In this document: piece after piece, positions 5,047 through 56,876 of the stretch
Position numbering within the stretch: position 1 is the first letter of the stretch
How the letters are laid out: each line of letters starts with the position of its first letter
Assembly: GCF_055900595.2 (NCBI RefSeq)
Contig: NZ_CM148325.1
Strand: one strand, 5' to 3'
Length of the DNA: 64,000 nucleotides
Position numbers and translations under genes: made by a program
The notes under the pieces: model-generated
Seen by the model: the letters and a program-made list of their open reading frames with translations, nothing else
What the model was told of the DNA's origin: nothing
Databases searched by the model: none

Positions 5047-5072
5047 AGAATTATCTTCCGTTTGCAGGCTAT

Positions 5073-6623: not shown

Positions 6624-6735
6624 GGAATCTCCTTAACAGGTTAAGCATCGTTTGCGATCATGGAGATCGCCCAGCCCTGAAGGTAAACAACGTTTTCCGC
6701 TACTGTGGGGCTAACTGCGTTAGCCCCGGTTATTG

Positions 6736-10509: not shown

Positions 10510-10594
10510 TCCCCGAAAAGTGAGAAACGCGCAGTCTGCGGTTAGTGCCCGAAAAGATTGCCGTGATAATATAGCGATAATCGTGCTCCTGTTG

Positions 10595-11200: not shown

Positions 11201-11587
11201 AATCGATCTCCTGCTCTTTTTAAGATTTTACAAATATAACAAGCCAAGAATAGCAACAGAATGCATAGAGCACCATCCATTTAAAATTTACTCATCATTA
11301 GACCATGAATTATTGAAAAAAAATTAACAATAATAAGAGAGTGTGATATAGTGCAATATTTCTATTATAGCTGGGGATATTTTAGCCATTAATCCGCAGT
11401 CATATAAATAAAGGTGGTCTGCAGCACGGATAGCTGCCTGTAATTAAAATTCAGATGTGTGATTTCCTTCAAATTAAATGTAAATACGGTGTTAATTTTT
11501 TCAAAACTGATTGTCGGTTATAAGAATTACAAATACATTCAACAATCATCATGTTGTGTATGTGTATTATCGCCAGAGGAAAGAAAG

Positions 11588-12517: not shown

Positions 12518-13126
12518 TGCACCGGATGGCAGTTTTACCTTTCGGTGCATCAATGAGATAAATGAAGGGCAATCAGTGAGATAAATGACGAATTGGAGTG
12601 GGTTACATGGGTTCTGGTGAACAGAAATGAAATTCTTTTTCTCTATGTGATAGACAAATCGGGAATTGAAATCATCCCTACAGGCAACTCAGAATCTGGG
12701 GGCTGAAAACGCTACGAACCATCAGATTTGGATAATATTCATCACCGTTTCGGCCTGATTGTATCCAATCTGGAAGAAAAGTTTCATGATTTTATGGGCG
12801 TTATCCTTATGGTGCTGGGCGACGAGAGTAATACTTCACGCCGGTTTTGTCGGATAATCCAGAAATATAGGGGCAAATCCAAACAGGAAAGATAGGGGGA
12901 GGGACGCGTTTCCGGCACAACCAGCGTTACGTCACCCTGCATTGTTAGTTACGAAAAGCGTACCGGAAACGCGGAACATTCTTTTAACACATTACAGGCA
13001 TTCGCACACATCTTTTTTCTTCTTTGTGCTCTGAACACTGCAGTGCTCAATTAATATTAGCCACGTTTTACAGTAAGAACGGTATCTGTTCTCTGATTCT
13101 TCCGGCGTCAACCCACAGTGTAATTA

Positions 13127-13556
<430 letters not shown>

Positions 13557-13680
13557 TCAGTCTGGTAACTATCGTAAACCGTTCAGTGGGGAGGATATCA
13601 AGAGCACTGTAGCTTTTTAATATCGTTTTTTGTTCCTCCAGGCGACGAACCTGCTTTTCCAGCTCATGAATACGTTGCTA

Positions 13681-35985: not shown

Positions 35986-37725
35986 TTGACTGGAAAATTA
36001 TGTTGCAGGAACGAGAGGGCTGAGGAACAAAGCTTATCCCGGCGCTGTCCGTCCTTGCTGTCACTGACACTGATGTCTGTTTTATTATCGCCTTTATCTC
36101 TTCAGGCAGCGGATGTCCGGCGTAGCGGAGATGAAGCATTTATCATTCAGCAGCAACGTCAGGAAGCCCTTGAGCAACAACTGACGCCTTCGGCCCCTGA
36201 TGTTCGCCTTTCTGCACCTGGCTCTTTTGCCCGTAAGATTAATTTTCCTGTTGAAACGCCCTGTTTTCAGATTAAACAGACAGAACTGGAGGGGGCTGAT
36301 GCGTTACCACACTGGTTGCCTTTACAAAAAATCGCCAACGGGGCGGTCGGGCATTGCATGGGGGCGAAAGGAATTAATCTGCTGATGAGTACATTGCAGA
36401 ACCGTCTGGTCGATCATGGTTATGTCACTACCCGGGTTCTGGCACCTTCGCAGGATTTAAAAAGCGGTATCCTCCGGCTGGTTATTATTCCCGGTGTTGT
36501 GCGGCATGTGCGTCTGACACCGGACAGTGATGACTATATTCAGTTGTATTCCTCATTTCCGGCACACGAAGGCTCTCTGCTGGATTTACGGGACATTGAG
36601 CAGGGGCTTGAGAATATGCAACGACTGCCGGGTGTACAGGCTGATATGGAAATTGTGCCCGGTGAGCAGCCAGGGGAAAGTGACATTCTTATTACCCGCA
36701 AACAGGACAAATACTGGCGACTGGGGTTTTCGCTTGATGATTCAGGTACCCGCAGCACAGGGCGTTATCTCGGTGGTATAACATTTTCTCTGGATAATCC
36801 TTTTTCCCTGAGTGACCTGCTGTATGTTTCTGCCACCCATAATTTTCCACATTACGGGGGTAAGGGTAGTAAAAACTACACGGCCCATTACTCTGTGCCT
36901 TTCGGCTACTGGCAGTTTTCCGTCACCGCCAGTGATTACGATTACCATCAGACGGTAGCTGGTGCGGTTGAGGATTACCAGTACAGTGGCGAGAGTCAGA
37001 ATCTGGGCATGCAGCTGAGCCGGGTACTGCATCGTAACGGGACGCAGAAAACGGTGCTGACCTACGATGTTCAGGCCCGCAGGTCGCGTAACTACATTAA
37101 TGATACGGAAATCCAGGTACAGCGCCGGCAGACGGCGGCATGGCGACTTGGACTGCAGCACCGCCATTATATTTCGCAGGCCACACTGGATGCCGGCGTC
37201 AGCTGGCAACGGGGAACCCGCTGGTCTGGTGCACAACCGGCACCGGAAGAAACGTTCGGTGAGGCAACGGCGCTCAGTAAGATCCTGCAGTTGAATGCAT
37301 CCTTTAATCTGCCCTTTACACTGGCAGGGCAGCCCTTCAGTTATTCCTTCCGGTATCAGCGTCAGCTGAGCAATACCCCGCTGACCCCACAGGAACAGTT
37401 TGCCATCGGTAACCGCTGGACGGTTCGTGGTTTTGACGGGGAACGAACGCTGAATGCCAGTAACGGATGGTATATCCGCAACGACCTGACCTGGCGTACG
37501 CCACTGCCGGAGCAGGAGTTATATCTGGGAATGGATTACGGCGAGGTGGGGGGAGCCGGCAGTGAATACCTTGTGGGACGTCATCTGGCCGGTGGTGTTG
37601 TGGGGCTGAGGGGGCAACTGTTCAGTACGGATTATGACGTTTTCATCGGTCGTCCGTTTTCAAAGCCGGCGGGTTTTATGACGAGTGATGTGACAGCCGG
37701 TTTTAATCTGTTCCGGGATTTCTGA
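35986..37725 (+). CDS. cdiB: Two-partner secretion outer-membrane transporter CdiB (TpsB/FhaC family)
   Basis: Signal peptide then POTRA/ShlB-type regions; alternative start at 36073 ([12 protein letters not shown]). Confidence 0.85.
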
Positions 37726-37734
37726 GAAAGTTTC

Positions 37735-38172
37735 ATGCGTAACGGGAAATATGACGTTCTGAGTCCCCTGTATTCCGGTGAGCCGGTCAATGAGGCGGAA
37801 GTCCTGGGGGCGGCCGTCTGGCTGTGGATGCACTCCCCCCTGCATCGTGATGCGCCACTGCATACCCTGCCGGACCTGCTGCTGCCGGTGATTAAGCACC
37901 GACAGTATGTGGTGGCAACAGAGCAGGGGCGACCGGTTTTCTTCATGAGCCAGGCCTGGCTCAGCCCGGAGGCAGAGGCGCGTTATCTTACGCAGCCGGC
38001 AATTCTCATGCCTCAGTCGGACTGGAACAGCGGCGACCGGATGTGGGTCTGTGACTGGGTTGCCCCTTTTGGACACACTCCGGATATGAGTCGTCTTGTC
38101 CGGCAGGATATTTTTCCCCGTCTGTGCTGGCGTTCGCTGTACCACCGTGGGCAGCAGACCGGGTTACCCTGA
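37735..38172 (+). CDS. cdiC: HlyC/RtxC-family toxin-activating lysine acyltransferase (CdiC-type), C-terminal end replaced
   Basis: AVWLWMHSPLHRDAP and SGDRMWVCDWVAPFG closely parallel HlyC SWLWASSPLHRNWP and SGDRKWFIDWIAPFG; ORF ends inside the cdiA reading region. Confidence 0.75.
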   Translation: MRNGKYDVLSPLYSGEPVNEAEVLGAAVWLWMHSPLHRDAPLHTLPDLLLPVIKHRQYVVATEQGRPVFFMSQAWLSPEAEARYLTQPAILMPQSDWNSGDRMWVCDWVAPFGHTPDMSRLVRQDIFPRLCWRSLYHRGQQTGLP

Positions 38173-41100
38173 CGGCTGACGGACGTATTGAAAACAGTGG
38201 CAGTATCAGTGCGAAAACGGATGTGCATCTGGCGACAACCCGGGAGCTGCATAACAGTGGTTCTGTTTATGCGGGGCAGGATACGCAGATACAGAGTAAT
38301 GGTGTATTCACCCATACAGGCTCTGTGGCATCACGTCGCAACACCCGGATTCAGACAGCGCGTCTGACCGGCGGTGAGCGAAGTCTGCTCACCGCCGGGG
38401 TGAAAGATGACGGACGTCTGGCGGCAGCGGGCAACCTGACTGTCAGTACCACCGGCGAACTGGCGGCACACGGACAGGTTCTGTCCGGTGGGGACATGCA
38501 ACTGAAGGGGCAGGGGCTGGATTTAAGCAACAGCCGGATACAGGGACAACATACTGAGCTGGATGCAACCAGTGGAAATCTGTCCACACAGAATGCGCAA
38601 CTGAGTGCCGGTACGCTTTCCGCCCGGACTGCCGGGCAGTTCAGCAATAATGACGGCACGATAAATGCCGACACACTGCAGATATCAGCACAGAGCCTGT
38701 CAAACCACAGGGGTAAACTGATTCAGACGGGAACAGGGGATTTTTCGCTGAGTCTGCCGGGAAGCGTGGATAACCGGGAAGGGCTGCTTGCGGCAAATGG
38801 CGCGGTGCGTCTGGATGCACTGAGCCTTGATAATCGCAAGGGGAAAGTGCAGGCGGCGCAGTCAGGCAGTCTGCAGGTGAAGACAACCGGTGCCGTGGAT
38901 AACCAGCAGGGACGTCTGCTTGCCAGCAGTGACATCCTGATTAATACACAGGCGCTGAATAACGACAACGGACTGATTTCAGCTGCTGCCGGAACGGGCA
39001 GGATAAAAACACAGCAGTCTGTCAGCAATACGGAGGGACGAATGGAGTCCGCCGGCAGGCTGGATATTTCGGCAGGGAGTCTGAATAACCACCAGGGTAC
39101 GGTGGTGTCTGACGGGCTGTCCGTGACGCTGGATGGTGCGCTGGATAATACGTCCGGCAGACTGCTTTCACAGAAAACGCTGTCTGTGTCAGGCAGCGAA
39201 CTGGTCTCTGATGATGGTCTGATTCAGTCCGGCAGTGACATGACGCTGGATGTACAGGACGGGGTACTTAGTAACCGGAACACGAAAACACGGGGTGGTA
39301 TCAGCAGCGCCGGTACCCTGACAGTGCGGGCTGGTATGCTGAATAACCAGCAGGGATTTATGGTGGGTCAGAAGGATATGACCCTGAACGCCGGAACGCT
39401 TGATAACCGTCAGGGCGTGCTGGGGAGTCAGGCGTCATTACAGATATCGTCAGGTACGCTGATGAATCAGAAAGGTGCACTGAAGGCCGGGACGGATATG
39501 TTGCTGAGTGGTGGCGATGTCAGTAATCAGGAAGGGACGCTTGCCGCCGGCGGGGACCTGAATACTCACCTGAATGTGCTGGAAAATCAGCAGGGGACGG
39601 TGGTCAGCAACGGTAACAGCAGGCTGGATGTCACACGGTTTGATAATCAGGGCGGCAGACTGGTGGCACAGCAGTCACTGACCCTTTCCTCGACGGATAT
39701 CATCAACGATGCCAGCGGCCTGATACAGAGCGGTGCATCGCTGAATCTCCGTGCTGACACGCTGAGCAACCGTAACAGTGGTGACCGGGGCGGGGTTATC
39801 AGTCAGGGGCCGATGACGCTGAATGCCGGCACACTGGACAGCACTGCCGGTGTGCTTTTGTCGGGAGATGCTCTGTCCCTGACTGCAGGCGTGGTTAACA
39901 ATACATCCGGTCAGGTGGTGGCAAACGGTCTGCTCGGCTGGAACAGCCAGGCGCTGAACAATCAGTCAGGTCTTATTCAGGGGAAAGGCATCAGCATTAA
40001 TACCGCAGGCCAGACGCTGGATAACCGTGAGGGTGGCCGGCTGGTCAGTGAAGGTGAACTCCGTCTGCATACGGGAGGCCTGCAGAACAGCCAGGGACAG
40101 ATACAGTCTGTGGGCGACATTCTGTTCGACAGTGTACGGGGCGTTGTGGACAACGTCTCTGGTCTGATCCGCAGTGGTTCTGCCATTACGCTGAACGCCC
40201 TGCAGTTTATCAATCGCCACACGCAGAATACCGGCCAGGGGCTGGAAGCGCAGACAATACACATCACGACGCAGGACCTTGATAACCAGGAGGGCAGTAT
40301 TCTGGCAGACAGGGCGCTTACGGTTATGGCAGACAGGACGCTCAGTAATAATGATGGCGTGCTCTCTTCCGGCGCGACATTGTCTGTCAGTGGCCGTCAG
40401 CTGACGTTTTCGAACCGTGACGGCGTGGTTAAGGCCGGGCAGTCAGTATCTGTGGATGCCGGTCAGCTCGGTGGTGACGGGAAACTGCTTTCGCTGGGCG
40501 ATATGGCGCTGAAAAGTAACACAACGTTCAGTAACAGTGGTCAGACCATTGCGAACGGAAACCTTACGCTTTCCGTTAATGGCGATGTCTCTAATACCGG
40601 CAGCCTGCTGGCAGGCAGCCGGCTTGACCTGAACAGCATCCGCCTTGAAAACACAGAGAAAGGTGAAATCAGTGCCGGGCAGACCTGGCTTAACGTGACG
40701 GACACACTGCTGAACTGTGGGCTGATTGACGGGAAATATACGCATCTTCAGGCGAACACCCTGACGAATTCCGGTACCGGGCGAATCTACGGCGATGCTG
40801 TTGGTGTCAGTGCTGCCACATTTAATAATCTGGAAGAAAATGGCGTGGCGGCGACGCTGGCCGGTGAGAAAGCGAAGCGGGACCCGGCAGCACTGAATCA
40901 GGCCCGCGCAGAGCTTGAGGCAGCAGGAAAGCCGTTTACGGAACAGGATGTGGCACAGCGGGCCTACAATAACGGTATGGCGGCCTCAGGTTTTGGAACG
41001 GGAGGCAAATACCAGCAGGCGATACAGGCCGCAACGGCAGCGGTACAGGGACTGGTCGGCGGTAATCTGAGTGCAGCCCTGGCAGGTGGTGCAGCGCCGT

Positions 41101-42149
41101 ATATTGCTGAAATTATCAAACAGACCACCCCGGATGGTGCGGGACGTGTGGCAGCTCATGCAGTAGTGAATGCAGCCCTGTCTCTGGCACAGGGTAAGAA
41201 TGCTCTTGCTGGTGCCGCAGGCGCTGCCACCGGCGAGGTGGTGGGAATGATAGCCACACAGATGTACGGTAAGCCGGTGAGTGAACTGAGCGAGACAGAG
41301 AAACAGACGGTCTCCACGCTGGCAACGGTTGCTGCCGGTCTGGCCGGTGGTCTGGTGGGAGACTCAGGTGCTTCAGCGGTAGCCGGAGCACAGTCAGGTA
41401 AGACGACGGTTGAAAACAATATGCTGAACGTGATAGCCACTGAAACAGCGGCTAATACGGCAGCAGCAATAGCTGGTGCTACAGGTAATGCCAGTAGGGA
41501 TACCGGGAATGATAATAGCTGGGATATTGGTGGTGGTTGTGAAGGCTCACGGGAACAGTGTGCTGTACGTGACCCGAGTCGCGATGGTACCCGGGGACCG
41601 GGGCATGTGCTGAATGGCGACAATACAGACGAAAACAAACAGCCGAATCTGGGCAAAGACGTAGCGAGCGCTACGGATAAGGATAAAGCTGAGCTTGGTG
41701 GTGCAGGTGCTGGAACACCGGGTGGGTGGGGACCGGATAATGAAGAAAAAGCCCGTCATCAGGAGGTTCAGCAACAACGATTTGATGAACTGAGTAAAAT
41801 ATATGATAAAAGTCACCCGGTCGGAGAGTTAACAGTGGATGGGCAGACTATCAGGCAGAGTTCGGTAAGTAACCGTTATGGTACGACGAAAGTGTTTGAA
41901 AGCCAGAATCTGACGGATAAACAGATCCACAATTACGCACAACAGCTGGCAGGAGATACACCGCTGAAAGAGGTTCGGCCGGGGATCTATACTGCAAAGC
42001 TGAATAACGGAACATCGATCACGTTGCGGAATTTATCGTCGTCCCAAGAACAAACAGGCGCCAGATGGACTATTGATATTAGAGGGAATCAGCAATTGGC
42101 TGAAATTGCACATAAATACGGACGTCAGGTTGAAATTAAATTTAGGTGA
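38124..42149 (+). CDS. cdiA: CdiA contact-dependent inhibition effector, 5'-truncated (no TPS secretion domain), with VENN-delimited C-terminal toxin
   Basis: 1341 aa starting in FHA-type repeats with no signal peptide or TPS domain; pretoxin region ends ...AGAQSGKTTVENN (VENN at 41409..41420); about 240-aa CdiA-CT. Confidence 0.85.
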   Translation: MLAFAVPPWAADRVTLTADGRIENSGSISAKTDVHLATTRELHNSGSVYAGQDTQIQSNGVFTHTGSVASRRNTRIQTARLTGGERSLLTAGVKDDGRLAAAGNLTVSTTGELAAHGQVLSGGDMQLKGQGLDLSNSRIQGQHTELDATSGNLSTQNAQLSAGTLSARTAGQFSNNDGTINADTLQISAQSLSNHRGKLIQTGTGDFSLSLPGSVDNREGLLAANGAVRLDALSLDNRKGKVQAAQSGSLQVKTTGAVDNQQGRLLASSDILINTQALNNDNGLISAAAGTGRIKTQQSVSNTEGRMESAGRLDISAGSLNNHQGTVVSDGLSVTLDGALDNTSGRLLSQKTLSVSGSELVSDDGLIQSGSDMTLDVQDGVLSNRNTKTRGGISSAGTLTVRAGMLNNQQGFMVGQKDMTLNAGTLDNRQGVLGSQASLQISSGTLMNQKGALKAGTDMLLSGGDVSNQEGTLAAGGDLNTHLNVLENQQGTVVSNGNSRLDVTRFDNQGGRLVAQQSLTLSSTDIINDASGLIQSGASLNLRADTLSNRNSGDRGGVISQGPMTLNAGTLDSTAGVLLSGDALSLTAGVVNNTSGQVVANGLLGWNSQALNNQSGLIQGKGISINTAGQTLDNREGGRLVSEGELRLHTGGLQNSQGQIQSVGDILFDSVRGVVDNVSGLIRSGSAITLNALQFINRHTQNTGQGLEAQTIHITTQDLDNQEGSILADRALTVMADRTLSNNDGVLSSGATLSVSGRQLTFSNRDGVVKAGQSVSVDAGQLGGDGKLLSLGDMALKSNTTFSNSGQTIANGNLTLSVNGDVSNTGSLLAGSRLDLNSIRLENTEKGEISAGQTWLNVTDTLLNCGLIDGKYTHLQANTLTNSGTGRIYGDAVGVSAATFNNLEENGVAATLAGEKAKRDPAALNQARAELEAAGKPFTEQDVAQRAYNNGMAASGFGTGGKYQQAIQAATAAVQGLVGGNLSAALAGGAAPYIAEIIKQTTPDGAGRVAAHAVVNAALSLAQGKNALAGAAGAATGEVVGMIATQMYGKPVSELSETEKQTVSTLATVAAGLAGGLVGDSGASAVAGAQSGKTTVENNMLNVIATETAANTAAAIAGATGNASRDTGNDNSWDIGGGCEGSREQCAVRDPSRDGTRGPGHVLNGDNTDENKQPNLGKDVASATDKDKAELGGAGAGTPGGWGPDNEEKARHQEVQQQRFDELSKIYDKSHPVGELTVDGQTIRQSSVSNRYGTTKVFESQNLTDKQIHNYAQQLAGDTPLKEVRPGIYTAKLNNGTSITLRNLSSSQEQTGARWTIDIRGNQQLAEIAHKYGRQVEIKFR

Positions 42150-42505
42150 GCATTATGTTGACTGAAAATGAGTATCGTGAAACAGCTGACGCATCGGAGA
42201 TGCAAGCGTTAAGTGGTTTATGGGCTTACAGTATTCCAGATCATGTTGATAGCGCAGTATTCAGTTTTGATGAAAGGAAAAAACTCTTTTTCTGGATATT
42301 TGAGCGCCTTCTGAAAGAAGGGCGCATCAAACTCGCCAAGCACGGTAAGTTTCTGGAAGGCAGTGTTGACGAGCAGGTTGAGCGTTTCCGACAGGCATTT
42401 CCAAAAACAGAAGAAGAGATGGAAGACGGTATCTGGTTTTTTGATGAGAGCTGTCCGGGAGGAGCTGTCTGGGTGCTTGAAGATGGCTCTCTCGAATGGA
42501 CCTGA
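42146..42505 (+). CDS. cdiI: Putative CdiI immunity protein
   Basis: 119-aa acidic cytoplasmic ORF overlapping the cdiA stop; assignment by position only. Confidence 0.6.
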   Translation: MSIMLTENEYRETADASEMQALSGLWAYSIPDHVDSAVFSFDERKKLFFWIFERLLKEGRIKLAKHGKFLEGSVDEQVERFRQAFPKTEEEMEDGIWFFDESCPGGAVWVLEDGSLEWT

Positions 42506-43050
42506 TAAACCCGTTCATAGTGCAGGATGCGGTGCAGCAAGCGTATAACAACGATATGACAGCCTCAGGTTTTGGAACGGGAGGCAAATACCAGCAGGCG
42601 ATACAGGCCGCAACGGCAGCGGTACAGGGACTGGCCGGCGGTAATCTGAGTGCACCCTGGCAGGTGGTGCAGCGTCGTATATTGCTGAAATAATCAAAAA
42701 TACCCCCCCCGGACTGTGCGGGAAGTGTGGTAGCTCATGCCTTGGTGAATGCCGCACTGGCTGTGGCACAGGGAAATAACGCTCTTGCCGGTGCCGCAGG
42801 GGCTGCCACCGGCGAGGTGGTGGGAATGATAGCCACACAGATGTACGGTAAACCGGTCAGTGAACTGAGCGAGGCAGAGAAGCAGACGGTCTCGACACTG
42901 GCAACGGTTGCTGCCGGTCTGGCCGGTGGTCTGGTGGGAGACTCAGGTGCTTCAGCGGTAGCCGGAGCACAGTCTGGTAAGGCGGGGGGCGAAGGTAGTT
43001 GGTTCGTGAATTGGTTGGAATTCTGTAATATTAATAATAAAAATCGCTAA
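42496..43050 (+). pseudogene. Orphan cdiA-CT fragment (duplicate pretoxin region, toxin domain lost)
   Basis: Near-identical to cdiA pretoxin region (AYNN.M.ASGFGTGGKYQQAIQAATAAVQGL...[15 protein letters not shown]) but split by indels and in-frame stop at 42691; ends ...[17 protein letters not shown] instead of TTVENN. Confidence 0.7.
42703..42710 (+). repeat. C8 homopolymer at a frame-restoring indel in the orphan cdiA-CT
   Basis: TACCCCCCCC where the cdiA paralogue has CAGACCACCCC. Confidence 0.8.
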
Positions 43051-43072
43051 ATGGTTATTCGGGGATACTCGA

Positions 43073-43474
43073 TTGAATAAATTTATATATTTTCTGTTAG
43101 CAGGTATTTTATTTTCGGGACAGGTGGATGCAGCACGGGGAAGAAAACCCTGCTCGGGTGCTAAAGGTGGCATTTCACACTGTACGTCAGACGGACGTTT
43201 TGTCTGTAACGACGGAAGTCTGAGTCAGTCGAAACGCTTTTGTTCCGGTTATGGCGTGGCACCCGGCAAACGTCAGGTGAAATCACCTGTCACCACGAAG
43301 CCGGTTCAGAAGAAAAAATCAGTGGCTGTCCGGAAGGTGCCACAACCGTCGGTGGCTGAGAAAGATGAGTCTGTACCGGTCACTGAGCCGCGTAAACCCA
43401 CCTGTGCGCCGCTTTATATGGCCAGCAAACCCGGATTCACGCATCTGCCTATTTGTTCCGGTAATCAGTATTAA
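43073..43474 (+). CDS. Small secreted cysteine-containing protein of unknown function
   Basis: 133 aa; signal peptide [21 protein letters not shown]; 6 Cys in mature part; lysine-rich linker. Confidence 0.55.
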
Positions 43475-43708
43475 TCTGACACTGAAATAGCAGAGGCATC
43501 TGTGCTCAGCCTGCAGTTAACCCTGTATTGGCGAGCATCATAAAGCCGGACATCCTTCCGGGTATAAATATTTCCGGAGGGCGTTAATCAGAAATATTCA
43601 GTTACGGAGAAGGAAAATAAAGGAAAGTCATGGCAGGAAGAAAAAAAAGATGATAATGCAGCGGGATTTGTCCTGATTTTAGTTTGCGTTATTCTCTGGG
43701 GGATTTAT

Positions 43709-44875
43709 GTGGCGGTCAGGACGCTGATAAACCTTAATGAGCGCTTTATTGATGCAGTATCGAATCCGGCAGGTATTATTGGTTTGTTTTTTGGTTTGCT
43801 TACCGTATTTGCAATTTTATTTCGTTTTTTTATTTACCGGAGACTCAGAAAGAAAACAGCAGCATTTGAGCAGGCCGTTTCAGAGCTGGTTCAGAGAGAA
43901 CGGGATTTTAATGAAACTGTCAATGCCGCTATAGCCCGGGGAATACGACAGGAAAAGGAGCAGCTTGCCAGACGTCGTGAGGAATTTCATACCACCAGAA
44001 AGAAGGCCGGCCGTGCAATGCAGCGGATTGTTGATTCTGCCTGGAAATTTAAGGCGAAGACTCTGCTGGCTGGTGTAACGATTAATAACTGGCAAAGCAA
44101 ATATGACCAGCTTCGTAAGGAAAGAGAGGCTTACGCTGCTGTCAGTGAGAAAATTGCCTTTCTTAACCTGGAAGATAATTCTGACTGGGAGAGTGTCAGG
44201 CAACAGTTTCTGGACAAAGTGGCATTGCTGGAAAAAGCGCAGGAAGAAAAGGAATATCAGGCAGAGCTTAAGCGTCAGATGCGTGAAGAAAAAGAGCGTC
44301 AGGATGAACTTGACCGGCGCCAGCGGGAAGCGGAAGAGGAAGAACGGCGTCTTGCTGAGCAGCAGAAACTGATTGAGGAGGCGCTGCGCGCAGCAGAAGG
44401 GGCTCACAGGGAGGAGTTAGAGAAACAACGCCTGGAGCTGGAACAGAAAATTCAGGAAGCGCATGCGCAGTATGAACGTGCTAAATCCATGGCTCAGCTT
44501 ACGAAACAGGGGCATGTTTATATCATTTCGAATATTGGTTCGTTTGGTGAGGATGTCTTTAAAATTGGCATGACCCGACGGCTGGAACCCATGGACAGGG
44601 TCAAAGAGTTAAGTGGTGCTTCTGTTCCGTTTGATTTTGATGTTCACGCCATGATTTCCTGTGATGATGCGCCCGCGCTGGAAAAAACACTTCATGACAG
44701 TCTGGAAAAATACCGCATCAACAGGATTAACCTGCGTAAAGAATTTTTCCGCGTGAAGCTTGAGAAAATCATTAATGAAGTGGAGCGTCACCACGGGCAG
44801 GTGGAATATGTGGCTGACCCGGCAGCACTGCAGTATCTGCAGAGTCTGGAGTGCGCGGAAAATGAAGCTGCCTGA
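43709..44875 (+). CDS. Membrane-anchored coiled-coil protein with C-terminal T5orf172/GIY-YIG-like domain (DUF4041-type architecture suspected)
   Basis: N-terminal TM helix GIIGLFFGLLTVFAILFRFFIY; long charged coiled coil; C-terminal GHVYIISNIGSFGEDVFKIGMTRRLEPMDRVKELS...FDFDVHAMI typical of T5orf172. Confidence 0.65.
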   Translation: MAVRTLINLNERFIDAVSNPAGIIGLFFGLLTVFAILFRFFIYRRLRKKTAAFEQAVSELVQRERDFNETVNAAIARGIRQEKEQLARRREEFHTTRKKAGRAMQRIVDSAWKFKAKTLLAGVTINNWQSKYDQLRKEREAYAAVSEKIAFLNLEDNSDWESVRQQFLDKVALLEKAQEEKEYQAELKRQMREEKERQDELDRRQREAEEEERRLAEQQKLIEEALRAAEGAHREELEKQRLELEQKIQEAHAQYERAKSMAQLTKQGHVYIISNIGSFGEDVFKIGMTRRLEPMDRVKELSGASVPFDFDVHAMISCDDAPALEKTLHDSLEKYRINRINLRKEFFRVKLEKIINEVERHHGQVEYVADPAALQYLQSLECAENEAA

Positions 44876-45068
44876 CAATCAGTGTTCTGATTTTATTCCG
44901 GCCGGATATAACAGAAGGGATATCTGCACATATCCTGCAGCATGGTTCACGGTATTCCGGTCATGTTAATGATTCTGTTTTTTTATTTCTGAATAAAATG
45001 ACACCCACGATATAACGTCGTGGGTGTCGGTGATGATTATTTTTTTGTTCACAGATTAAGGTGCGTTT

Positions 45069-46856
<1,788 letters not shown>

Positions 46857-46921
46857 TACCAGACCATTTCTTTATTCCGGGCTTTCACCATACTGTTATT
46901 ATCAGGTTTATTTAATTCGCC

Positions 46922-47227
46922 ATGAACCCGTTATTTAACGATATTCAGATGCGTCTTTTTTATCTGAACCACTCTCCGTACTCCTGGCACTGGAATGTCA
47001 GATTCAGACCTCAGGAAGCCGTATATATTGGCAGCGATACCTGTCATATCACCATTACCTGTAATCAGTCTGGTTTTCATTTAACCCGGGACGGACAACG
47101 GGTATTCACTGAGCGTTATATCAGAAACCTTAATGAGCTGTTACCGGTTCTGAAACGGCGGTGGGATGTGACACCGGCAATCATCCGCGCAGTGGAATAC
47201 CTTTCCCGGGTACCGGTATCACACTGA
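46922..47227 (+). CDS. Small hypothetical protein upstream of ImpA_N-domain gene
   Basis: 101-aa ORF, 43 bp upstream of next gene on same strand. Confidence 0.4.
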   Translation: MNPLFNDIQMRLFYLNHSPYSWHWNVRFRPQEAVYIGSDTCHITITCNQSGFHLTRDGQRVFTERYIRNLNELLPVLKRRWDVTPAIIRAVEYLSRVPVSH

Positions 47228-47269
47228 TGTTCTTTCCGTAACTGTTAATCATGATTTAATACAGCAACA

Positions 47270-48643
47270 TTGAATCTGCCGATGACTTCTGAAGTGAAAC
47301 TGAAAACCGGTGGTGACCCCCGGTCATTACCGGATTATGCTGCCCTGCGTGATGAAATCAGCAAACTGACCCACCCGGCACGCCCGGATGTGGACTGGCG
47401 TCATGTGGAGACGCTCTGCCTGCGTCTGTATGAACACAATGGCGTGGAATTACAGACAGCATCCTGGTACACCATCGCCCGGATGCATACAACAGGGTTA
47501 AGTGGCCTGAATGAAGGGCTGGCTCTGATTGTGGCGCTGACCCGGCATCACTGGTCAGTGATGTGGCCGCTGAATACACACGCCCGGCTGGAAATTATTA
47601 CCGGTCTGTTCAACCGTCTGCAAAAAACGCTCCGGGCCATGCCACCGGACGACCGTGACAACCTGCCCCTGCTGTATCAGACCGAAACATTTCTGAAGGC
47701 ACTGAGTGACACACTGGCCCGGCACGAACTTAAACAGAGCAGTAAAGTGGCTTTACCGGAAGCCATGGTGAAGGGATATATCACCCGTCTGGAAAATCAG
47801 CCAGTGCAGGACGAAGCGTCGTCTCCGGTAACCCTTCCTGCTCAGGCACTCCGGTCTGATGCTCCGGATGTACAGGGACATCAGCCCCTGCCGCACTCCC
47901 GTCTGGTGTATGTTGTTTCTGAAACAAAAACAGAGCCCACATCCTCCCTTCAAAACTCCCCGCCCACGTTTCTGAAACCGTTTGTGACTGGTGTCTGTGC
48001 GGCATTGCTGGCGGTCTGCGTGGCCATTCCGGGATGGCAGTATCTGGCACAGCCATCACCGGCAGAGCAGCAACTCAGGGCGCTGCTGACACCACCACCG
48101 GATGTGCTTTCAGCAGACCAGATGACACAGCTCAGCAGAACACCCTCACTGTTAAATCATGCGTCAGAGTGGATAACCCTTTCCGGTCAACAGATAACGC
48201 GACTGACAGAATTACCCCTGGCATACAACCTGCAGTGCAGTGCGCAGCTACTGCAGCAACTGATGGTACTTTTCCCCGACAATCCCCGGGTACAGGAAAT
48301 GGTGGATAACTGGCAGAAGAGCGTAAGGAGTCGTGCGCTCCCGGAAGAGGCGATGACGGGCTGGAATGAAGGCATGACCCGCTTACAGCAGCTGGCTGAA
48401 CGCCTGAACCGTCTGGATGAACAGCGGGGAAAATACATGACGGTCAGTGAACTGAAAACGGAGGTGTTTGGCATCATGCAGGCTTTTAACCGGCACATAC
48501 CGGCAGAAGAGCGGTTACGTCGCTATGATGAAGCCCGTAACCAGAATGGCAGTGAACAGCAACAAAAACAGATGGAAAATGCCCTGATGGAACTGTTGAA
48601 CCGCTACTATTTTTTAACACGGAATAGTTGTGTGGATATATGA
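47270..48643 (+). CDS. ImpA N-terminal domain protein with central TM helix (TssA/VasL-like)
   Basis: N-terminus GGDPRSLPDYAALRDEISKL...DVDWRHVETLCLRLY...LNEGLALIVALTRHHW resembles ImpA_N domain; TM segment FVTGVCAALLAVCVAI. Confidence 0.55.
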   Translation: MNLPMTSEVKLKTGGDPRSLPDYAALRDEISKLTHPARPDVDWRHVETLCLRLYEHNGVELQTASWYTIARMHTTGLSGLNEGLALIVALTRHHWSVMWPLNTHARLEIITGLFNRLQKTLRAMPPDDRDNLPLLYQTETFLKALSDTLARHELKQSSKVALPEAMVKGYITRLENQPVQDEASSPVTLPAQALRSDAPDVQGHQPLPHSRLVYVVSETKTEPTSSLQNSPPTFLKPFVTGVCAALLAVCVAIPGWQYLAQPSPAEQQLRALLTPPPDVLSADQMTQLSRTPSLLNHASEWITLSGQQITRLTELPLAYNLQCSAQLLQQLMVLFPDNPRVQEMVDNWQKSVRSRALPEEAMTGWNEGMTRLQQLAERLNRLDEQRGKYMTVSELKTEVFGIMQAFNRHIPAEERLRRYDEARNQNGSEQQQKQMENALMELLNRYYFLTRNSCVDI

Positions 48644-48784
48644 GAAGATATTTAACCTTTTGCAAGGTAATTTCCCTAAGGTGCGATAGGGTACAGAATA
48701 TTCTTTATTCTAGGATGGTTTTATTTTGTATGTTGGCAATTTCAATGAATATTTTACATTTAAGTATGGAATAAGGAGTGTTGA

Positions 48785-50491
48785 ATGAAGCTTTCATCAT
48801 TTTTTGTGGAAAACTTTAAATGTATCGGTAGAGAGGTACACATTAAAATAGATGATATTATTATTTTAATTGGGCAGAATAATGTAGGAAAATCAACAAT
48901 CCTTGATGCTTATGAGAAATTTGCTGCTCTTGGAAAAGAAAAGGTCTTAGATATTAGCCATTTTCATAATGAAGATGTTTCAAAGCCAGTGATCATGACA
49001 GGAGTATTTACAGATATTACTGTAGAAGATGAAACGGCAATAGGAAAAAAATGGAAGCACAATGATCCAGTTTATGGTGAGTGTATTAAGTTCAGATGGG
49101 TATGGAATGCACCCGGTGAGTCGGCTAAAAAAGAGGCATTTGATCCAACTAAAGGACAAGGTGAATTTGTAGCTGGTGGCTTGGGCGGGTTTGATAGCAT
49201 AATTAAAAGCCGTATTCCTAAGCCACTTCGAATTAAACCTGATGATTCAGTCCTGAAAACACAGGAGCTTATAATCGAAATATTGAAAAGTAATGTGAAG
49301 GAATACCTCAGTAATGGGCCTGATTCCAAGGCTGATGTGATAGCCAAAATTGAATCCCTAACAAGCGCTCTGGTTGAGTCATCTAAAGCAGAATTTGATC
49401 GATTGCTTGGTCGTATAACAGACAATATAGAATCGATTTTTCCAGGGGTTATTATGGAATTGGTTCCTCAGTCGAAAGATCCTATTGATGAGAAGATTAT
49501 CGCTTCAGCATCCTATTTAAAGGTTCGAAACCCGACTAGTCGTTCAACTATGCTTGAACTCCAAGGAACCGGGCTTAAGCGTTCTTTACTGTGGTCTGCA
49601 TTGTCAGTACTTTCGCAAGAAGGAAAAAGCAAAAAAGGTGATGTTGTCAAGGAGTGTAATATCCTGCTTATAGATGAGCCAGAGGCTTTTTTGCATCCAC
49701 CAACAATCCGTGGCGCACGAGAGGCTTTGTATACATTTGCAGCCAATAATCCTGGTTGGCAGGTAATGGCTACCACGCACTCTCCAGTATTCATCGATTT
49801 GTCGAAAGATCATACGACAATTATTCGGGTTGATAAAGATAGCCAGAACAAATACATCTCAACAAACGATATTGGGTTTGATAAGGATGAGAAAGTCAAT
49901 CTTAAAATTGTTCGAGCATGTAATCCAATGGTAAATGAGTTTTTTTTCTATAATAAAATTGTTCTTGTGGAGGGCCCTACTGAAAAAATTGTACTGAATC
50001 ATCTTCAGGATACTCTGGGGATAGAGATGCATGTAATCGATTGTCTTGGTAAAGGTAATATACCTATGTTTGTTAAAATTCTTAATCAGTTCGATGTTCC
50101 TTATGTTGTTATTCATGATTCTGACTCACCTAAAATCCGTCGTAAAGGAAAATATGTGAACAACGGGATGTGGACTATAAATACTTTGATTAGAAATGAA
50201 GTTGCTAAATCAAAAAAAGGACGTATTTTTACTCAGGTGCCGCACTTTGAAGGCGAATTTTTTGGCGAAACTCTTACCTCTGGTAAGGTATCAAATGTGC
50301 TCGAGGTTCTCCAGAACGTTACGGCTGAAGAATACACTCGCTTAATAAGCGTTTATAGCCGTATTTTAAATGACGCAGAAGAATCATTATTTACTGGGAC
50401 ACTTGAGTCTTTTATGGCTAAAATTAATGCATATACGGCAGATAAAACTGCATTAACAGATCCAGAGTTATGGGGATTATCGGGTTTATAA
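48785..50491 (+). CDS. OLD-family ATPase-Toprim nuclease (class 1 OLD-like, stand-alone)
   Basis: 568 aa; Walker A GQNNVGKST; ABC-type ATPase core (LLIDEPEAFLHP); C-terminal Toprim (VLVEGPTEKIVL ... VVIHDSDSP); gene is AT-rich. Confidence 0.8.
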   Translation: MKLSSFFVENFKCIGREVHIKIDDIIILIGQNNVGKSTILDAYEKFAALGKEKVLDISHFHNEDVSKPVIMTGVFTDITVEDETAIGKKWKHNDPVYGECIKFRWVWNAPGESAKKEAFDPTKGQGEFVAGGLGGFDSIIKSRIPKPLRIKPDDSVLKTQELIIEILKSNVKEYLSNGPDSKADVIAKIESLTSALVESSKAEFDRLLGRITDNIESIFPGVIMELVPQSKDPIDEKIIASASYLKVRNPTSRSTMLELQGTGLKRSLLWSALSVLSQEGKSKKGDVVKECNILLIDEPEAFLHPPTIRGAREALYTFAANNPGWQVMATTHSPVFIDLSKDHTTIIRVDKDSQNKYISTNDIGFDKDEKVNLKIVRACNPMVNEFFFYNKIVLVEGPTEKIVLNHLQDTLGIEMHVIDCLGKGNIPMFVKILNQFDVPYVVIHDSDSPKIRRKGKYVNNGMWTINTLIRNEVAKSKKGRIFTQVPHFEGEFFGETLTSGKVSNVLEVLQNVTAEEYTRLISVYSRILNDAEESLFTGTLESFMAKINAYTADKTALTDPELWGLSGL

Positions 50492-51507
50492 AATTCTCCA
50501 TAAGGGATTTTAAATCAATGAGTTTATTTTTATGCAGATAGAGTCTTTGAGTGAATTGAAATATTAGTACTGTCGACCTGCTGTTTTTGTAATATGATGG
50601 ATTTGGTAGGGGGATGTAATTTTTGTGATAGTGGTTAATATTAAAATGTTTTAGTGTGGATTTTTAGAGTAAAATGATTTAAGTAGTGTTCATATAAAGC
50701 AAGTTTGTTTTTTTTGGGGGGGTGATATTGATAGTAATGTGTGATATATTTTATTGAAATTATTTGTTGTGTGTTGTGAGAATAACAGAGTGTGATTGAT
50801 AAGTATGACGTAAAGAATGAATTATTGGTTCGCTGTATCAGAACAGGTAGGTTATGTTTTATTGACGTTATTTCTAACGAAACTAATTAACTCTGAGTTG
50901 CTTTTGCGTTATCGTATATTTGATCGTTTTTCGTTATAAGAGAAAAGTTTTAGATATATAATTCTTTGAGTGATGTTGAAGTTGGTTTTATCTGTCAGGA
51001 AGTATTGACTATATATGAACATACTCAACGATGCTGCAACGAAAAGAAAATTACAACTGTCCAGTTAGGCAGGAAACTTAATGGCAGGTATGCAGATATG
51101 ATTGCTGAGTTAAAAGAAACAGTAGAGATGAGGGGGGAGGGGTAATTTCTTTTGAGATGGATATATTGAATTCTTTTAATGATGCGGATGAATATCACGG
51201 ACGTGTTAAACTGGAATTGGATATACCTGCTTCAGATATATTATATTGCCATGATTTTATTGATTCAAAACATGTAAACTCCTGGCTGGTTGAACCACAT
51301 GAGTGGGTGGTTATTAATCGTTCTCTTACTGGGATTGTTACAGTGCCAGTATCAGCAATAAAAATCTCTTATTGAAAAAATTATGTATGTAACTTACTTT
51401 ATATATATAAGGGTAAAAACAGTCCCGGTAATAATTAAATATTATTTAATGTTTATTGCTATGTATTGGAGATATAAGCGGGTTTCTTTTGCATAAAGTA
51501 AAAATAA

Positions 51508-52438
51508 ATGAATGATAATTTTTTAACGGAGAAAGTCCTTACTGGAGAGAATGTTCTGCGTGCAGCAATTGCTCGTATTGAGTGGGTTTTTGAAACATTT
51601 CCATCAGTTTGTCTCTCTTTTTCCGGTGGTAAAGATTCCACCGTGCTTTTCCATCTTTTGGCTGATGTGGCCCGCAGGAAAAAACGTCGTTTCTCTGTAC
51701 TGTTCATTGACTGGGAGGCTCAGTACCAGTGCACCATTGAACATATTCAGAAGATGCGGGAAATGTACCATGATGTGACGGATACCTTTTACTGGGTGGC
51801 ACTTCCCCTGACCACGGTAAACGGTGTCTCGCAGTTTCAACCGGAATGGATATGCTGGGAGTCGGGCGTGAAGTGGGTTCGCCAGCCACCGGAGGGGGCC
51901 ATTACAGATATGGCGTATTTTCCCTTTTACCGGTATGCCATGACGTTTGAAGAATTTGTTCCGGCATTTTCTTCCTGGTTTGCAGACAATAAATGTGGTG
52001 TGGCAGTACTGACCGGTGTCCGTGCGGATGAGTCCCTTAACCGGTTCATGGGACTGGTATCCCAGCGCAAACTGAGATACGCCGATGATAAGCCCTGGAC
52101 CACGGCATCGCCTGAAGGGTTTTACTACACCATGTATCCGCTGTATGACTGGAAAACTCGTGATATCTGGATATATCACACCAGAACCCGTGCCATCTAC
52201 AATCCCCTGTATGATCTGATGTACCGTGCCGGCGTACCGTTACGCAACATGCGTGTCTGTGAACCTTTTGGTCCTGAACAACGTAAGGGACTGTGGCTTT
52301 ACCATGTTCTGGAGCCGGATACCTGGGCCAGGATGTGTGAGCGGGTGTCAGGGGCTGCCAGCGGGGCACTTTATGCCAATGAAAGCGGTGCTTATTTTGC
52401 CCTGCGTAAGCGCATATCAAAACCAGCCCATCATACCT
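51508..52438 (+). pseudogene. PAPS reductase-like (phosphoadenosine phosphosulfate reductase family, IbrA-like) gene, 3' end truncated by IS911
   Basis: PP-loop motif SFSGGKDSTVLFHLL; ORF runs from native sequence into IS911 left end at 52439. Confidence 0.7.
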
Positions 52439-52510
52439 TGAAGTGGTTTACTGAATTTGGCCACCTGAACAGAGGTGATATGCTCACCTCAGAACAACAC
52501 AGGTGCCATA

Positions 52511-53658
<1,148 letters not shown>

Positions 53659-53802
53659 CTCGGTGGCCAGTTTTTGTTGACCACTTCATATCTGTAAGAC
53701 TCTCATAAAGAATGATTTCTGGTGCCGGACCCTCTCCTTCAGTCCTAACAAACCCCGGCACTATGAACGTTATCTGCAGCGTATGAAAGAAAGGAGGAAG
53801 GA

Positions 53803-54441
53803 ATGGGGGATTCTGTGACAGCGGAGGTACTGAGTGACATGATTCGTCAGTACTTCAGCCAGGAACGACCAGAAGAAGAGACCATACAGGCTCTGAATCA
53901 TCTGCGCAGGGTGCTTCATGAGGTCAGTCCATTTGCACAGGAGCCTGTGGACTGTGTGCTGTGGGTGAAAGCAGATGAGGTGGTGGCCAATGATTATAAT
54001 CCTAATGTCATGGCGCCGGGTGAGAAAAAACTGCTGAAACATTCGCTGGAGCAGGACGGGTTCACGCAGCCTGTGGTTGTCTCGGAAGAGAAGGAGCATT
54101 ATCTGGTGGTGGATGGTTTTCATCGTCAGTTACTGGGCAGGGAAGCAGGTACGGGAAAACGTCTGAAGGGCTGGTTGCCAGTGACCTGTATTAATCCGGA
54201 GAGAAAGGGACAGGCCGCACGCATTGCCGCGACCATTCGACATAACCGGGCCAGGGGAAAACACCAGATAACTTCAATGTCTGATATTGTCAGGGATCTT
54301 TCACGTCTGGGCTGGACGGATGAACGCATTGGCATGGAGCTGGGTATGGACCAGGATGAAGTTCTCAGGTTGAAACAGATTAGCGGGCTGACGGAGCTGT
54401 TTCAGGAAGAGGATTTCAGCCCGGCATGGACGGTTCGCTGA
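53803..54441 (+). CDS. ParB-like nuclease domain protein (IbrB-like)
   Basis: 212 aa; ParB N-terminal-like segment (VVANDYNPNVMAPGEKKLLKHSLEQDGFTQPVVV...YLVVDGFHR). Confidence 0.65.
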   Translation: MGDSVTAEVLSDMIRQYFSQERPEEETIQALNHLRRVLHEVSPFAQEPVDCVLWVKADEVVANDYNPNVMAPGEKKLLKHSLEQDGFTQPVVVSEEKEHYLVVDGFHRQLLGREAGTGKRLKGWLPVTCINPERKGQAARIAATIRHNRARGKHQITSMSDIVRDLSRLGWTDERIGMELGMDQDEVLRLKQISGLTELFQEEDFSPAWTVR

Positions 54442-54480
54442 GACTGTCAGATATGTGTATTATTTCAGTGAGTTGATGTT

Positions 54481-54789
54481 TTGAGCAGGAAAAATAGTAC
54501 CCCGGAAGTCGTGGAAGACATGGTTGCACAGACGCTGGAGGCGGCGGGTTGCTGGCGCAGAGCTTCTGCCCGCTGGCTTTTTGTTATGGGAAATGTTGAA
54601 TGTACAGAAGCACAACGGGAGTGGTTGTTGTTACGCAGGAATTATTGCCTGGCGCAGATATCGTCCCCGCCGCTACCTGAAAAGCTGGATATCAGCGAGG
54701 TGGCGAAAGCTGCAGATGCCACGCTGAGGCGAATGGGGATTGCCAGTCCGTCTGGGGAGGTATTCAGAAAAGGTACACTGGTCTGTTGA
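54481..54789 (+). CDS. Hypothetical protein
   Basis: ORF only. Confidence 0.35.
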   Translation: MSRKNSTPEVVEDMVAQTLEAAGCWRRASARWLFVMGNVECTEAQREWLLLRRNYCLAQISSPPLPEKLDISEVAKAADATLRRMGIASPSGEVFRKGTLVC

Positions 54790-54809
54790 TATTCAGGTAA
54801 CAGGTATTA

Positions 54810-55454
54810 ATGATGAAGAAAGTAATGGTGGACAGCGTATCAGTGCCATGGCAGCTTTTGTGCGATGAACATGGTTTTACCCGGGAGCACCACAATCAGT
54901 TGAAGAAGTTCAGCCCGGAGGCATTACGTGAAATTATTGCTGAAATAGCCTGCTGCCATCCATCAACCAGTGTATTGCTCAGGAATAAGTGGCTGACACC
55001 GCCGGAGGATATTCCGGAGCAGGTTACCCGTGAATACGAACGAAGAATACAGAACTGTCCATCGTTCAGGAGCGAGAAGGAAGCGGAATCCTGGTTAAAT
55101 GAACTGTTTTTTGCTGTGATTGCTCCGCTATACCGTGTTGCCCCCGAACAAACAGAACAGGTTGAGTCCTTTGTTCTGCAGCTTATTGCCGAGCAGGAGC
55201 GGGTTTGGGAGCTTATTTTAACCAATGATGGTTATTCATGGCATTGCGCACTTTATGATATATTATTTCATCTGGTTTTACGAAATATGGAAGACCAGCC
55301 TGAACATCAGAGACAGCGAATAACAAAAATACTTAATGAGTCCGATACAAAACGGGTTGCAGAAGAGATTAAATTTCGGATTCAATATCTTCAGGATGAA
55401 GAACAAAAAAGAGTTTTAAGTGAACTGGTAAATGTCCTGACTTCAAAAAGATAA
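54810..55454 (+). CDS. Hypothetical protein
   Basis: 214-aa ORF with plausible RBS spacing; no family recognised. Confidence 0.45.
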   Translation: MMKKVMVDSVSVPWQLLCDEHGFTREHHNQLKKFSPEALREIIAEIACCHPSTSVLLRNKWLTPPEDIPEQVTREYERRIQNCPSFRSEKEAESWLNELFFAVIAPLYRVAPEQTEQVESFVLQLIAEQERVWELILTNDGYSWHCALYDILFHLVLRNMEDQPEHQRQRITKILNESDTKRVAEEIKFRIQYLQDEEQKRVLSELVNVLTSKR

Positions 55455-55495
55455 AACATGCCGGAGTAATTTTTTCTATATGTTAATAAAATCGG

Positions 55496-55563
55496 TGCGT
55501 ATTACCATGAAGGAGATCGATGAGTAACCGTTATTGGATGATCTCCTTCCATAAAAATACGCG
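55496..55563. repeat. MITE-like element: two ~33-bp inverted repeats matching the termini of the IS3-family element in asrB, separated by 2 bp
   Basis: TGCGTATTACCATGAAGGAGATCGATGAGTAAC-CG-TTATTGGATGATCTCCTTCCATAAAAATACGCG; compare termini at 30737 and 32480. Confidence 0.7.
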
Positions 55564-56876
55564 TAATCTAATGGTTCGCTCTGTACCAAAAGAAGACATT
55601 GTTCACAATATCGAGTTAATCATTCGATCGTTGAATATTTTCATTGAAAAATTTCTCAGTATAGAATATATCAATGTTGAGGGTATTCCTCTTACATCTC
55701 GAAGGATAACTATCATGGGTCTTAAACCTGGTCCAAAACCAATTGCTAAGTCGACAGGAAAACCGGATCAACGCCGACGCGATAATAAAGATACTCCTGG
55801 CAATACTCCGGGACTAAAGCCAAGTAAGTCCACAGGTAAGTAAAAAAATAAGGGTATAAATAAGCATTTATACCCTGACTATATATCCAGTCCACCGAAG
55901 GTGTTTCAGCAGCCAGATGCTCGTTCTTTCTATATCATACGCCTTTGCCCCGTACCCTTTCGCAAGCAAAGACTCTGGTAAATACTCGTCATATTTATCC
56001 AGATCCTTATCAGGAACAACTGTAGCAGGCTCAAATTCTGAAGGTGCAAAATGGCATCTGAATCGATCACGACTTGGCATGCTTCCGATCATTGATTGGC
56101 ATCCTGCCAATCGTATCGTTCCGGCAAACTCATATTGACGCATTTTTCAGGCGAGCCACTGGGAGCGCATACGAATGGGCGCCGTCTGACGATGGTTGAT
56201 TTATTTTGTTGTACAGGGGCGATCGCCAGGCAGGTGCCGGAGGCTGGCTCTGAAGTGCTGAGTCGGGTAATCGCGTCAGGCTGCGCAGTACTGACATGGG
56301 TACTGGTGGCAGGTGATGAAGTTCGACTCCGGAAATGCCGCCGGGTTGATTGCGTATTCCGCTCTATTCGATCACGGATTGGCCCCCTGTGTACGAACAT
56401 CTGACGGCAGGTGTTGCTCATACAGGGTAAATCCCTCAAGAGGCAACAACTTTGTCAGTCGCTACTCCGGCCACTCAGGCAGACGCGTCAGGATGTTCGT
56501 CAGCCCGGCATGTGACTCTAGGCCATTACGTTTTGCTGTATCCAGAAGACTCATTATCTGTGCTGCATGTTTTCCGTCCCATGATAACCCGATGGATGGC
56601 GTGTTCGTAGATATTGTTGCAGTATGGAACCATATTCTAAGATACTTTGCTGTAAGAAATGCTACGTTTGATGAGCTCTATTTTATTATTCTGCCAGCTA
56701 AAAATTAGTATTGAATATAAAACTCACCACATTGAGAATAAATGAAACAAATATATTTAATCAGGAAGTTAAAAACAGATAACATGGGTGTAATACAATA
56801 AGGTACAGCCAGTAATTCCGGGCTTGCGGAGTTGCTGGATCGTATGACTTAGACGTGATAAAAAACAGGGAATACG

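Follow-up and report, generated by a model that had tools for sequence, protein, structure and literature searches.

A probably pseudogenised class IV contact-dependent growth inhibition locus with three deletions and an unaltered toxin and immunity end

Contact-dependent growth inhibition (CDI) loci of class IV are defined by the gene order cdiB-cdiC-cdiA-cdiI and have been described from Escherichia coli STEC_O31 (Halvorsen et al., 2021; PMC8510554). In that work the His/Asp catalytic dyad of CdiC, a toxin-activating lysine acyltransferase (TAAT), was defined, and residues V1328, K1466, K1467, K1469 and P1589 of CdiA-STEC4 were named. The established CdiA pathway consists of Sec export, recognition of the two-partner secretion (TPS) domain by CdiB, target binding through the receptor-binding domain (RBD) and translocation mediated by FHA-2. 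Also described are orphan modules of a cdiA C-terminal toxin region (CT) with its immunity gene, cdiI, which are presumed to be kept for immunity (PMC4927057, citing an earlier paper of the same authors), and a surveillance model in which cells that lose immunity pay for it only as long as their siblings still deliver the toxin (Ruhe et al., 2016; PMC4927057). Here we describe positions 35986-43050 (plus strand) of a 64,000-nucleotide stretch of contig NZ_CM148325.1 (RefSeq assembly GCF_055900595.2), referred to below as the window, which are very probably a pseudogenised class IV cdiBCAI locus of the "STEC4" type (E. coli STEC_O31) whose attack system was disarmed by three deletions. The finding is one of ordinary gene decay in an already known system, and it is a real and inherited feature.

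All genes of the locus lie on the plus strand in the order cdiB, truncated cdiC (cdiC′), cdiA remnant and cdiI, which is the class IV gene order. When window positions 35500-43500 were compared by megablast with 5,426 complete RefSeq E. coli genomes, 71 of them matched at least 80% of the query with identity up to 98.2%, and in the best records the match was spread over ~12-15 kb as opposed to 8 kb in the window. Four intact reference loci, L001 (GmM062), L002, L003 and L004 (CE0026f), were compared with the window by blastn and sequence comparison. On translation, their cdiB (583 codons) and cdiA (2929-3016 codons) are both continuous open frames. The true cdiA start of L001 is the ATG at 5777, which opens a 3,005-aa product with a signal of the extended signal peptide region (ESPR) type, MNRNCYRIIFN. 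V1328, K1466, K1467, K1469 and P1589 of the reference CdiA stand at the positions published for CdiA-STEC4; the references are therefore STEC4-like, and STEC4 numbering is used throughout. The reference CdiA carries a TPS domain (PF05860) at residues 51-313 in the numbering of the Prokaryotic Genome Annotation Pipeline (PGAP), with E=6e-57, and Fil_haemagg_2 (PF13332, FHA-2) at residues ~1744-2361. The sequence flanking the locus in the window is 95-98% identical to that of STEC4-type loci.

The RefSeq annotation of the references calls for a separate remark. PGAP splits cdiB (3572-5224) and cdiA (5828-14794) of L001 into two and three pieces, respectively, and does likewise in L002-L004; in all four loci the flag 'incomplete; partial in the middle of a contig' is set on the leading piece of cdiB and on the leading two of cdiA. 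Since continuous frames have been annotated in pieces, intact class IV loci look like pseudogenes in these RefSeq records. That the references are themselves broken, as these pseudogene flags would imply, was ruled out by the continuous translated frames of cdiB and cdiA.

The elements of the window locus and its three junctions (J1-J3), the latter placed by alignment to the four references, are as follows.

35986-37725, plus strand: cdiB, Omp85-type TPS transporter, a continuous frame of 579 codons with no stop
37735-38172, plus strand: cdiC′, truncated toxin-activating lysine acyltransferase of 145 aa (PF02794 HlyC)
38162-38165: J1, GGTT microhomology, 1,071 bp missing
38166-42149, plus strand: cdiA remnant of 1,327 codons, made up of FHA-1 repeats, some of the pre-toxin region, VENN and CT
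40015-40025: J2, 11-nt repeat CGCTGGATAAC, 120 bp missing, in frame
40860-40864: J3, GCCGG microhomology, 3,951 bp missing, in frame
41409-42149, plus strand: VENN motif (41409-41420) and 242-aa CdiA-CT (41421-42146); PT-VENN PF04829, E=2e-19
42155-42505, plus strand: cdiI immunity gene, 116 aa, DUF596 by precomputed Pfam match (open reading frame from 42146/42155, 116-119 codons)
42507-43050, plus strand: degenerate orphan pre-toxin fragment (107-codon open reading frame 42727-43050), ~90% identical to 40928-41405

The same three gaps appear in the window against each of the four references. J1 can be mapped exactly: window 35502-38165 corresponds to L001 3001-5664, and the window from 38162 onward corresponds to L001 from 6736 onward, with equivalent joins against L002-L004. 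What is lost at J1 comprises cdiC codons 145-175, a 15-nt spacer and cdiA codons 1-320, that is, the start codon, the ESPR signal peptide and virtually all of the TPS domain. A prediction made from the letters of the window alone (the original prediction) had already proposed a deletion by which a 3′-truncated cdiC is joined to cdiA and CdiA loses its signal peptide and TPS domain, and the exact join against the references confirms this; the junction enters cdiA at codon ~321 of 3005, where the TPS domain ends and FHA-1 begins, and not in the middle of the gene as had been supposed.

The other two deletions are internal to cdiA. J2 removes 40 codons, corresponding to two FHA-1 repeats (STEC4 residues 942-981), and J3 removes 1,317 codons (STEC4 residues ~1262-2578), taking out the end of FHA-1, the RBD (~1300-1600), the stretch that separates it from FHA-2, the whole of FHA-2 and some of the pre-toxin region. 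The KKGK motif at 1466-1469, including the CdiC-acylated Lys1467, falls inside J3, as do V1328 and P1589. No copy of the deleted protein segments was found by tblastn in any frame of the window (best E=0.13). The sizes from which the earlier argument started, 1341 aa against about 3000, hold up well against the intact reference frames. A single deletion does not account for them: J1 explains only ~320 of the ~1,677 missing CdiA residues, J2 adds 40 codons and J3 1,317, so that most of the loss belongs to J3. The alignment to intact cdiBCAI loci that had been proposed as a check has in this way located the deletion endpoints, at three junctions.

The first open reading frame at J1 is indeed a truncated HlyC-type acyltransferase, as first read: cdiC′ matches PF02794 (HlyC/TAAT) with E=2e-30 over model positions 1-119 of 127 and encodes 145 aa compared with 175 aa in intact CdiC, the last 31 residues being lost. 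Over residues 1-144 there is no difference from intact CdiC (of L004 and others); a single foreign Pro codon follows, and then a TGA at 38170-38172. The native sequence thus runs to residue 144, not to about residue 130. The catalytic His37 and Asp107 are kept in CdiC′. The acyltransferase fold is incomplete, with the PF02794 match ending at 119 of 127 and the lost residues 145-160 aligning to residues 141-156 of ApxC (PDB 4WHN). As an aside, a full-length CdiC (P0010) that is 95% identical to CdiC′ has been deposited on a 4.68-Mb contig as 'Vagococcus sp. WN89Y', a Firmicute, and that assembly is probably mislabelled or contaminated.

The open reading frames 37735-38172 and 38124-42149 overlap and the DNA of both genes is directly joined, which could be taken to indicate an in-frame CdiC-CdiA fusion protein, a new acyltransferase-toxin chimera; the original prediction, too, had the acyltransferase running on into the cdiA frame. 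However, the cdiA remnant is read in a frame other than that of cdiC′, which ends at its TGA one codon past J1. The overlap results only from the back-extension of the called frame by the open reading frame finder to a GTG at 38124, which lies inside cdiC′, has no Shine-Dalgarno sequence and is preceded by an in-frame TGA at 38052. This "GTG start" is an artefact of open reading frame calling, and the called frame of 1341 aa (38124-42149) includes the stretch upstream of the junction. The next candidate starts of the remnant frame, at 38223, 38325, 38400 and 38496, likewise have no Shine-Dalgarno sequence. As the frames differ and no start has a Shine-Dalgarno sequence, no fusion protein arises and the remnant has no evident route to translation, and we give a chimera next to no probability.

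Within the remnant, NCBIfam finds only the fil_hemag_20aa repeat and Pfam only Fil_haemagg and PT-VENN; neither of the two detects a TPS domain, and FHA-2 (PF13332), which is present in the reference, has no match there. A TPS domain in an alternative frame had been named as a finding that would overturn the prediction, and tblastn with reference residues 1-303 found none in any frame of the window. The cdiA remnant is consequently left without the native start codon, signal peptide, TPS domain, RBD and FHA-2. Set against the established CdiA pathway, these losses mean that the effector is not exported or delivered, and we infer that expression and export of the remnant are missing. The earlier view that CdiB probably cannot export the effector is likewise supported: with the signal peptide and TPS domain gone, the remnant can be no substrate of CdiB.

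Taken as a mechanism, the locus was very probably disarmed by these three deletions through microhomology or short repeats. J1 removed the 3′ end of cdiC together with the start codon, signal peptide and TPS domain of cdiA, J3 the RBD, the CdiC-acylated lysine and the FHA-2 translocation domain, and J2 two FHA-1 repeats. The remnant would then have no translation from the native start, no entry into the Sec/CdiB pathway and no means of binding or entering target cells; CdiB would be left without cargo, and CdiC′ is both clipped and deprived of its substrate lysine. cdiI probably still works, with a ribosome-binding site of its own and a position downstream of the retained cdi upstream region, and the cells would remain immune to neighbours deploying this CT type.

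The transporter gene, cdiB, shows no comparable damage in the window. Translation probably begins at the ATG at 36073, which would give 550 aa, and the window CdiB is identical to that of the intact L001 at 565 of 579 positions (97.6%). Precomputed Pfam matches to POTRA_2, POTRA_3 and ShlB exist for identical CdiB products of sister loci.

The end of the locus that encodes the toxin and its immunity protein is unchanged, as had been predicted. From 41374 to the cdiA stop, and again in cdiI, there are zero nucleotide differences from the intact L001, and the last 428 CdiA residues differ from it at four positions, all of them upstream of VENN. No Pfam or PDB sequence match covers the CdiA-CT toxin domain; the only PDB match to the CT is a weak one in the linker to CdiA tRNase entries (E ~0.01). 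A Shine-Dalgarno sequence of its own, AGGTGA, precedes the ATG of cdiI by 5 nt, and the cdiI product is identical to that of L001 at 116 of 116 residues, with a distant and weak PDB relative for the DUF596 protein in 2O5H (E=1e-5). The same CT/cdiI pair occurs as the main module in GmM062 (L001) and as an orphan module in CE0026f (L004 13537-15768). cdiI presumably continues to be expressed, and the cdiI of the window allele may still give immunity. Downstream of it, the orphan pre-toxin fragment at 42507-43050 has an internal stop and is without VENN, toxin or immunity gene.

A different explanation for the short cdiA would be an assembly artefact, either a collapse of FHA repeats or a chimeric join, in a genome that in reality carries an intact cdiA. 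Short-read assemblies tend to collapse regions of FHA repeats, and J2 lies between 11-nt repeats in periodic FHA-1 units. J1 and J3, on the other hand, join non-repeated sequences through just 4-5 nt of microhomology, and their distribution speaks against an artefact as well. The exact 145-aa CdiC′ is found on 161 contigs labelled E. coli by exact-protein look-up, and eight loci (L006-L013), some in NCBI assemblies and others in Logan assemblies of separate sequencing runs, were retrieved by this sequence, so that the identity of cdiC′ among them is by construction. Both J1 and J3 are present in all eight. L006 (GCA_900448525.1, a 3.1-Mb contig) is 99.96% identical to the window over 16.4 kb and has all three junctions. 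The presence of the junctions in eight independent assemblies, together with the L006 match, therefore excludes an assembly artefact for practical purposes, and its probability is very small.

Among the 5,426 complete RefSeq E. coli genomes, none spanned J1 or J3, and the exact 28-mer of J1 had no match in the GTDB species representatives, which hold one genome per species, such that a variant E. coli allele is easily missed; only the exact-protein look-up brought the allele to light. A Shigella source, which the insertion sequence in asrB and the absence of the allele from genomes labelled E. coli might have suggested, was dismissed, as the public copies of CdiC′ carry the label E. coli. Among the carriers, cdiB shows 0-5 nucleotide differences, and the more distant flanks differ by up to 5%, which suggests, from sequence comparison, that the J1/J3 allele has a single and fairly recent origin.

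Decay of the allele has continued along several paths. J2 is shared, among carriers of J1, only by the window, L006 and L008. L010, L012 and L013 have another internal deletion, from window 38284 to 40015, and L009 has a separate one, from window 39546 to 40777. The main CT and cdiI are lost in L007 and L009-L013 through recombination between the main and the orphan pre-toxin repeat (window 40928-41405 and 42507-42984; for example, L010 9461-10005). In L008 (GCA_965264825.1), an assembly otherwise 99.96% identical to the window, cdiB has a nonsense codon at codon 59. The original prediction had conceded that a native class of about 1300 aa without a TPS domain would refute it. The short homologues found, of 1341, 1036, 1028, 512 and 441 aa, all bear the J1 and J3 scars; they are therefore remnants and not a native short class. 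A "mini-CdiA" with J3 only and a TPS domain was not found when a 400-aa query spanning J3 was compared with 5.8 billion protein clusters, which returned only fragments shorter than 700 aa with at most 54% query cover.

Four observations weigh against a pseudogenised and disarmed locus and should be taken into account. A promoter and terminator scan of 35300-43600 gave counts at the level of shuffled sequence and says nothing on transcription of cdiI or of the remnant. No allele with J1 only or J3 only was found among the 5,426 complete E. coli genomes and the eight carriers. cdiB is intact in seven of the eight carriers, with the 0-5 differences among them too few to test for selection. Finally, the remnant is still an open frame of 1,341 codons, with both J2 and J3 in frame, which could hint at a retained coding use; recent events in a repeat region, where stops in the sense frame are rare, would leave an open frame just as readily.

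The last of these observations is also part of the case for a module that has been disarmed and yet kept by selection, in which a weakly translated remnant and CdiI would form a toxin-antitoxin pair, or the CT and cdiI would be a silent reservoir recombining into other cdiA or rhs genes. The identity of the CT and cdiI to those of an active-type locus and the preservation of the open frame through two in-frame deletions are in keeping with this, and published models propose that orphan modules persist as a source of immunity or as a silent reserve (PMC4927057). Yet the remnant has no translation start signal, the window holds no second cdiA as a recombination partner, and the sister alleles L007 and L009-L013 have lost the CT and cdiI, so the module is dispensable in this lineage. 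We consider selective retention of this kind improbable. The pseudogenised class IV locus, with its CT and cdiI simply not yet lost, is the reading that we carry forward, and the later loss of the CT and cdiI in the sister alleles fits the surveillance model (Ruhe et al., 2016). It is conceivable, if on balance doubtful, that the J1/J3 allele amounts to a natural test of this model, that once export of CdiA was lost siblings could no longer police immunity, that the CT and cdiI thereby became free to be lost, and that the window allele represents a 'disarmed but immune' stage; in a weaker version, cdiB or the 1,341-codon remnant would be kept for a role independent of CdiA.

The main use of these results is for annotation. 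The 1,341-aa open reading frame should be recorded as a cdiA pseudogene and the 145-aa open reading frame as a truncated cdiC, and neither of the two is a fusion or a new class of short effector. Strains with the J1/J3 allele should be scored as CDI-negative, with possible immunity to this CT type. The sister alleles provide a small picture of how a polymorphic-toxin locus decays stepwise after its delivery arm has been lost, which is in line with what has been published on CDI surveillance and orphan modules and opens no new question.

Several features of the surroundings were noted in passing. Upstream of the locus, an IS3-family insertion sequence element with transposase open reading frames of 301 and 181 aa (30813-32383, minus strand) lies between asrC (29162-30301) and asrA (32754-33809), at the place of asrB; asrB is also split in L006 and L008 and is intact (272 aa) in L009-L013. 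Positions 4000-29100 hold fdrA/ylbE-like genes, a ROK regulator, an AbgT transporter and a 1,291-aa autotransporter of the S6 family (SPATE; 25137-29012). Window 4000-24000 is fully covered at 99.9% identity in only 18 of the 5,426 E. coli genomes, and in CFSAN061770 the shared genes reach through AbgT and the S6 peptidase and are followed by different genes. The block at 4000-29100 looks like a mosaic island adjoining the asr/cdi region. The cdi remnant is followed downstream, over 43709-62774, by a series of defence-like and nuclease genes, including these.

43709-44875: GIY-YIG/T5orf172 protein
45069-46856: NERD/UvrD-type helicase
47270-48643: TssA/ImpA_N-like protein
48785-50491: weak match resembling a retron-Eco8 effector
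56877-59921: type I restriction HsdR

Compared with the class IV cdiBCAI locus of STEC_O31 (PMC8510554), the window locus is alike in gene order and in the His37/Asp107 dyad of its TAAT. It differs in being without CdiA residues 1-320, 942-981 and ~1262-2578 and CdiC residues 145-175, and so it has no export signal, no RBD for lipopolysaccharide binding, no acylation site and no FHA-2. Relative to the ApxC/HlyC acyltransferases, CdiC aligns to ApxC (4WHN) over residues 14-160 (E=5e-27), and the window CdiC′ stops within this aligned fold, at native residue 144. A natural inactivation of cdiC is also known from the class IV locus of Salmonella enterica S-1643, in which cdiC has a frameshift (cited in PMC8510554). 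In S-1643 the cdiC defect is described alone, whereas in the window the truncation of cdiC is a by-product of a deletion that also took the 5′ end of cdiA. There is also a likeness to the orphan cdiA-CT/cdiI modules (Ruhe et al., 2016; PMC4927057), which, like the window remnant, combine a 5′-truncated cdiA without secretion or initiation signals with an intact cognate immunity gene. Unlike such modules, the window remnant has no intact cdiA upstream and sits immediately behind cdiC′, at the primary cdiA position; here the main cdiA itself has been decapitated in place, with ~900 FHA-1 residues kept. The loss of the CT and cdiI in L007 and L009-L013, in turn, provides a natural example of the recombination between main and orphan sequences discussed in PMC4927057.

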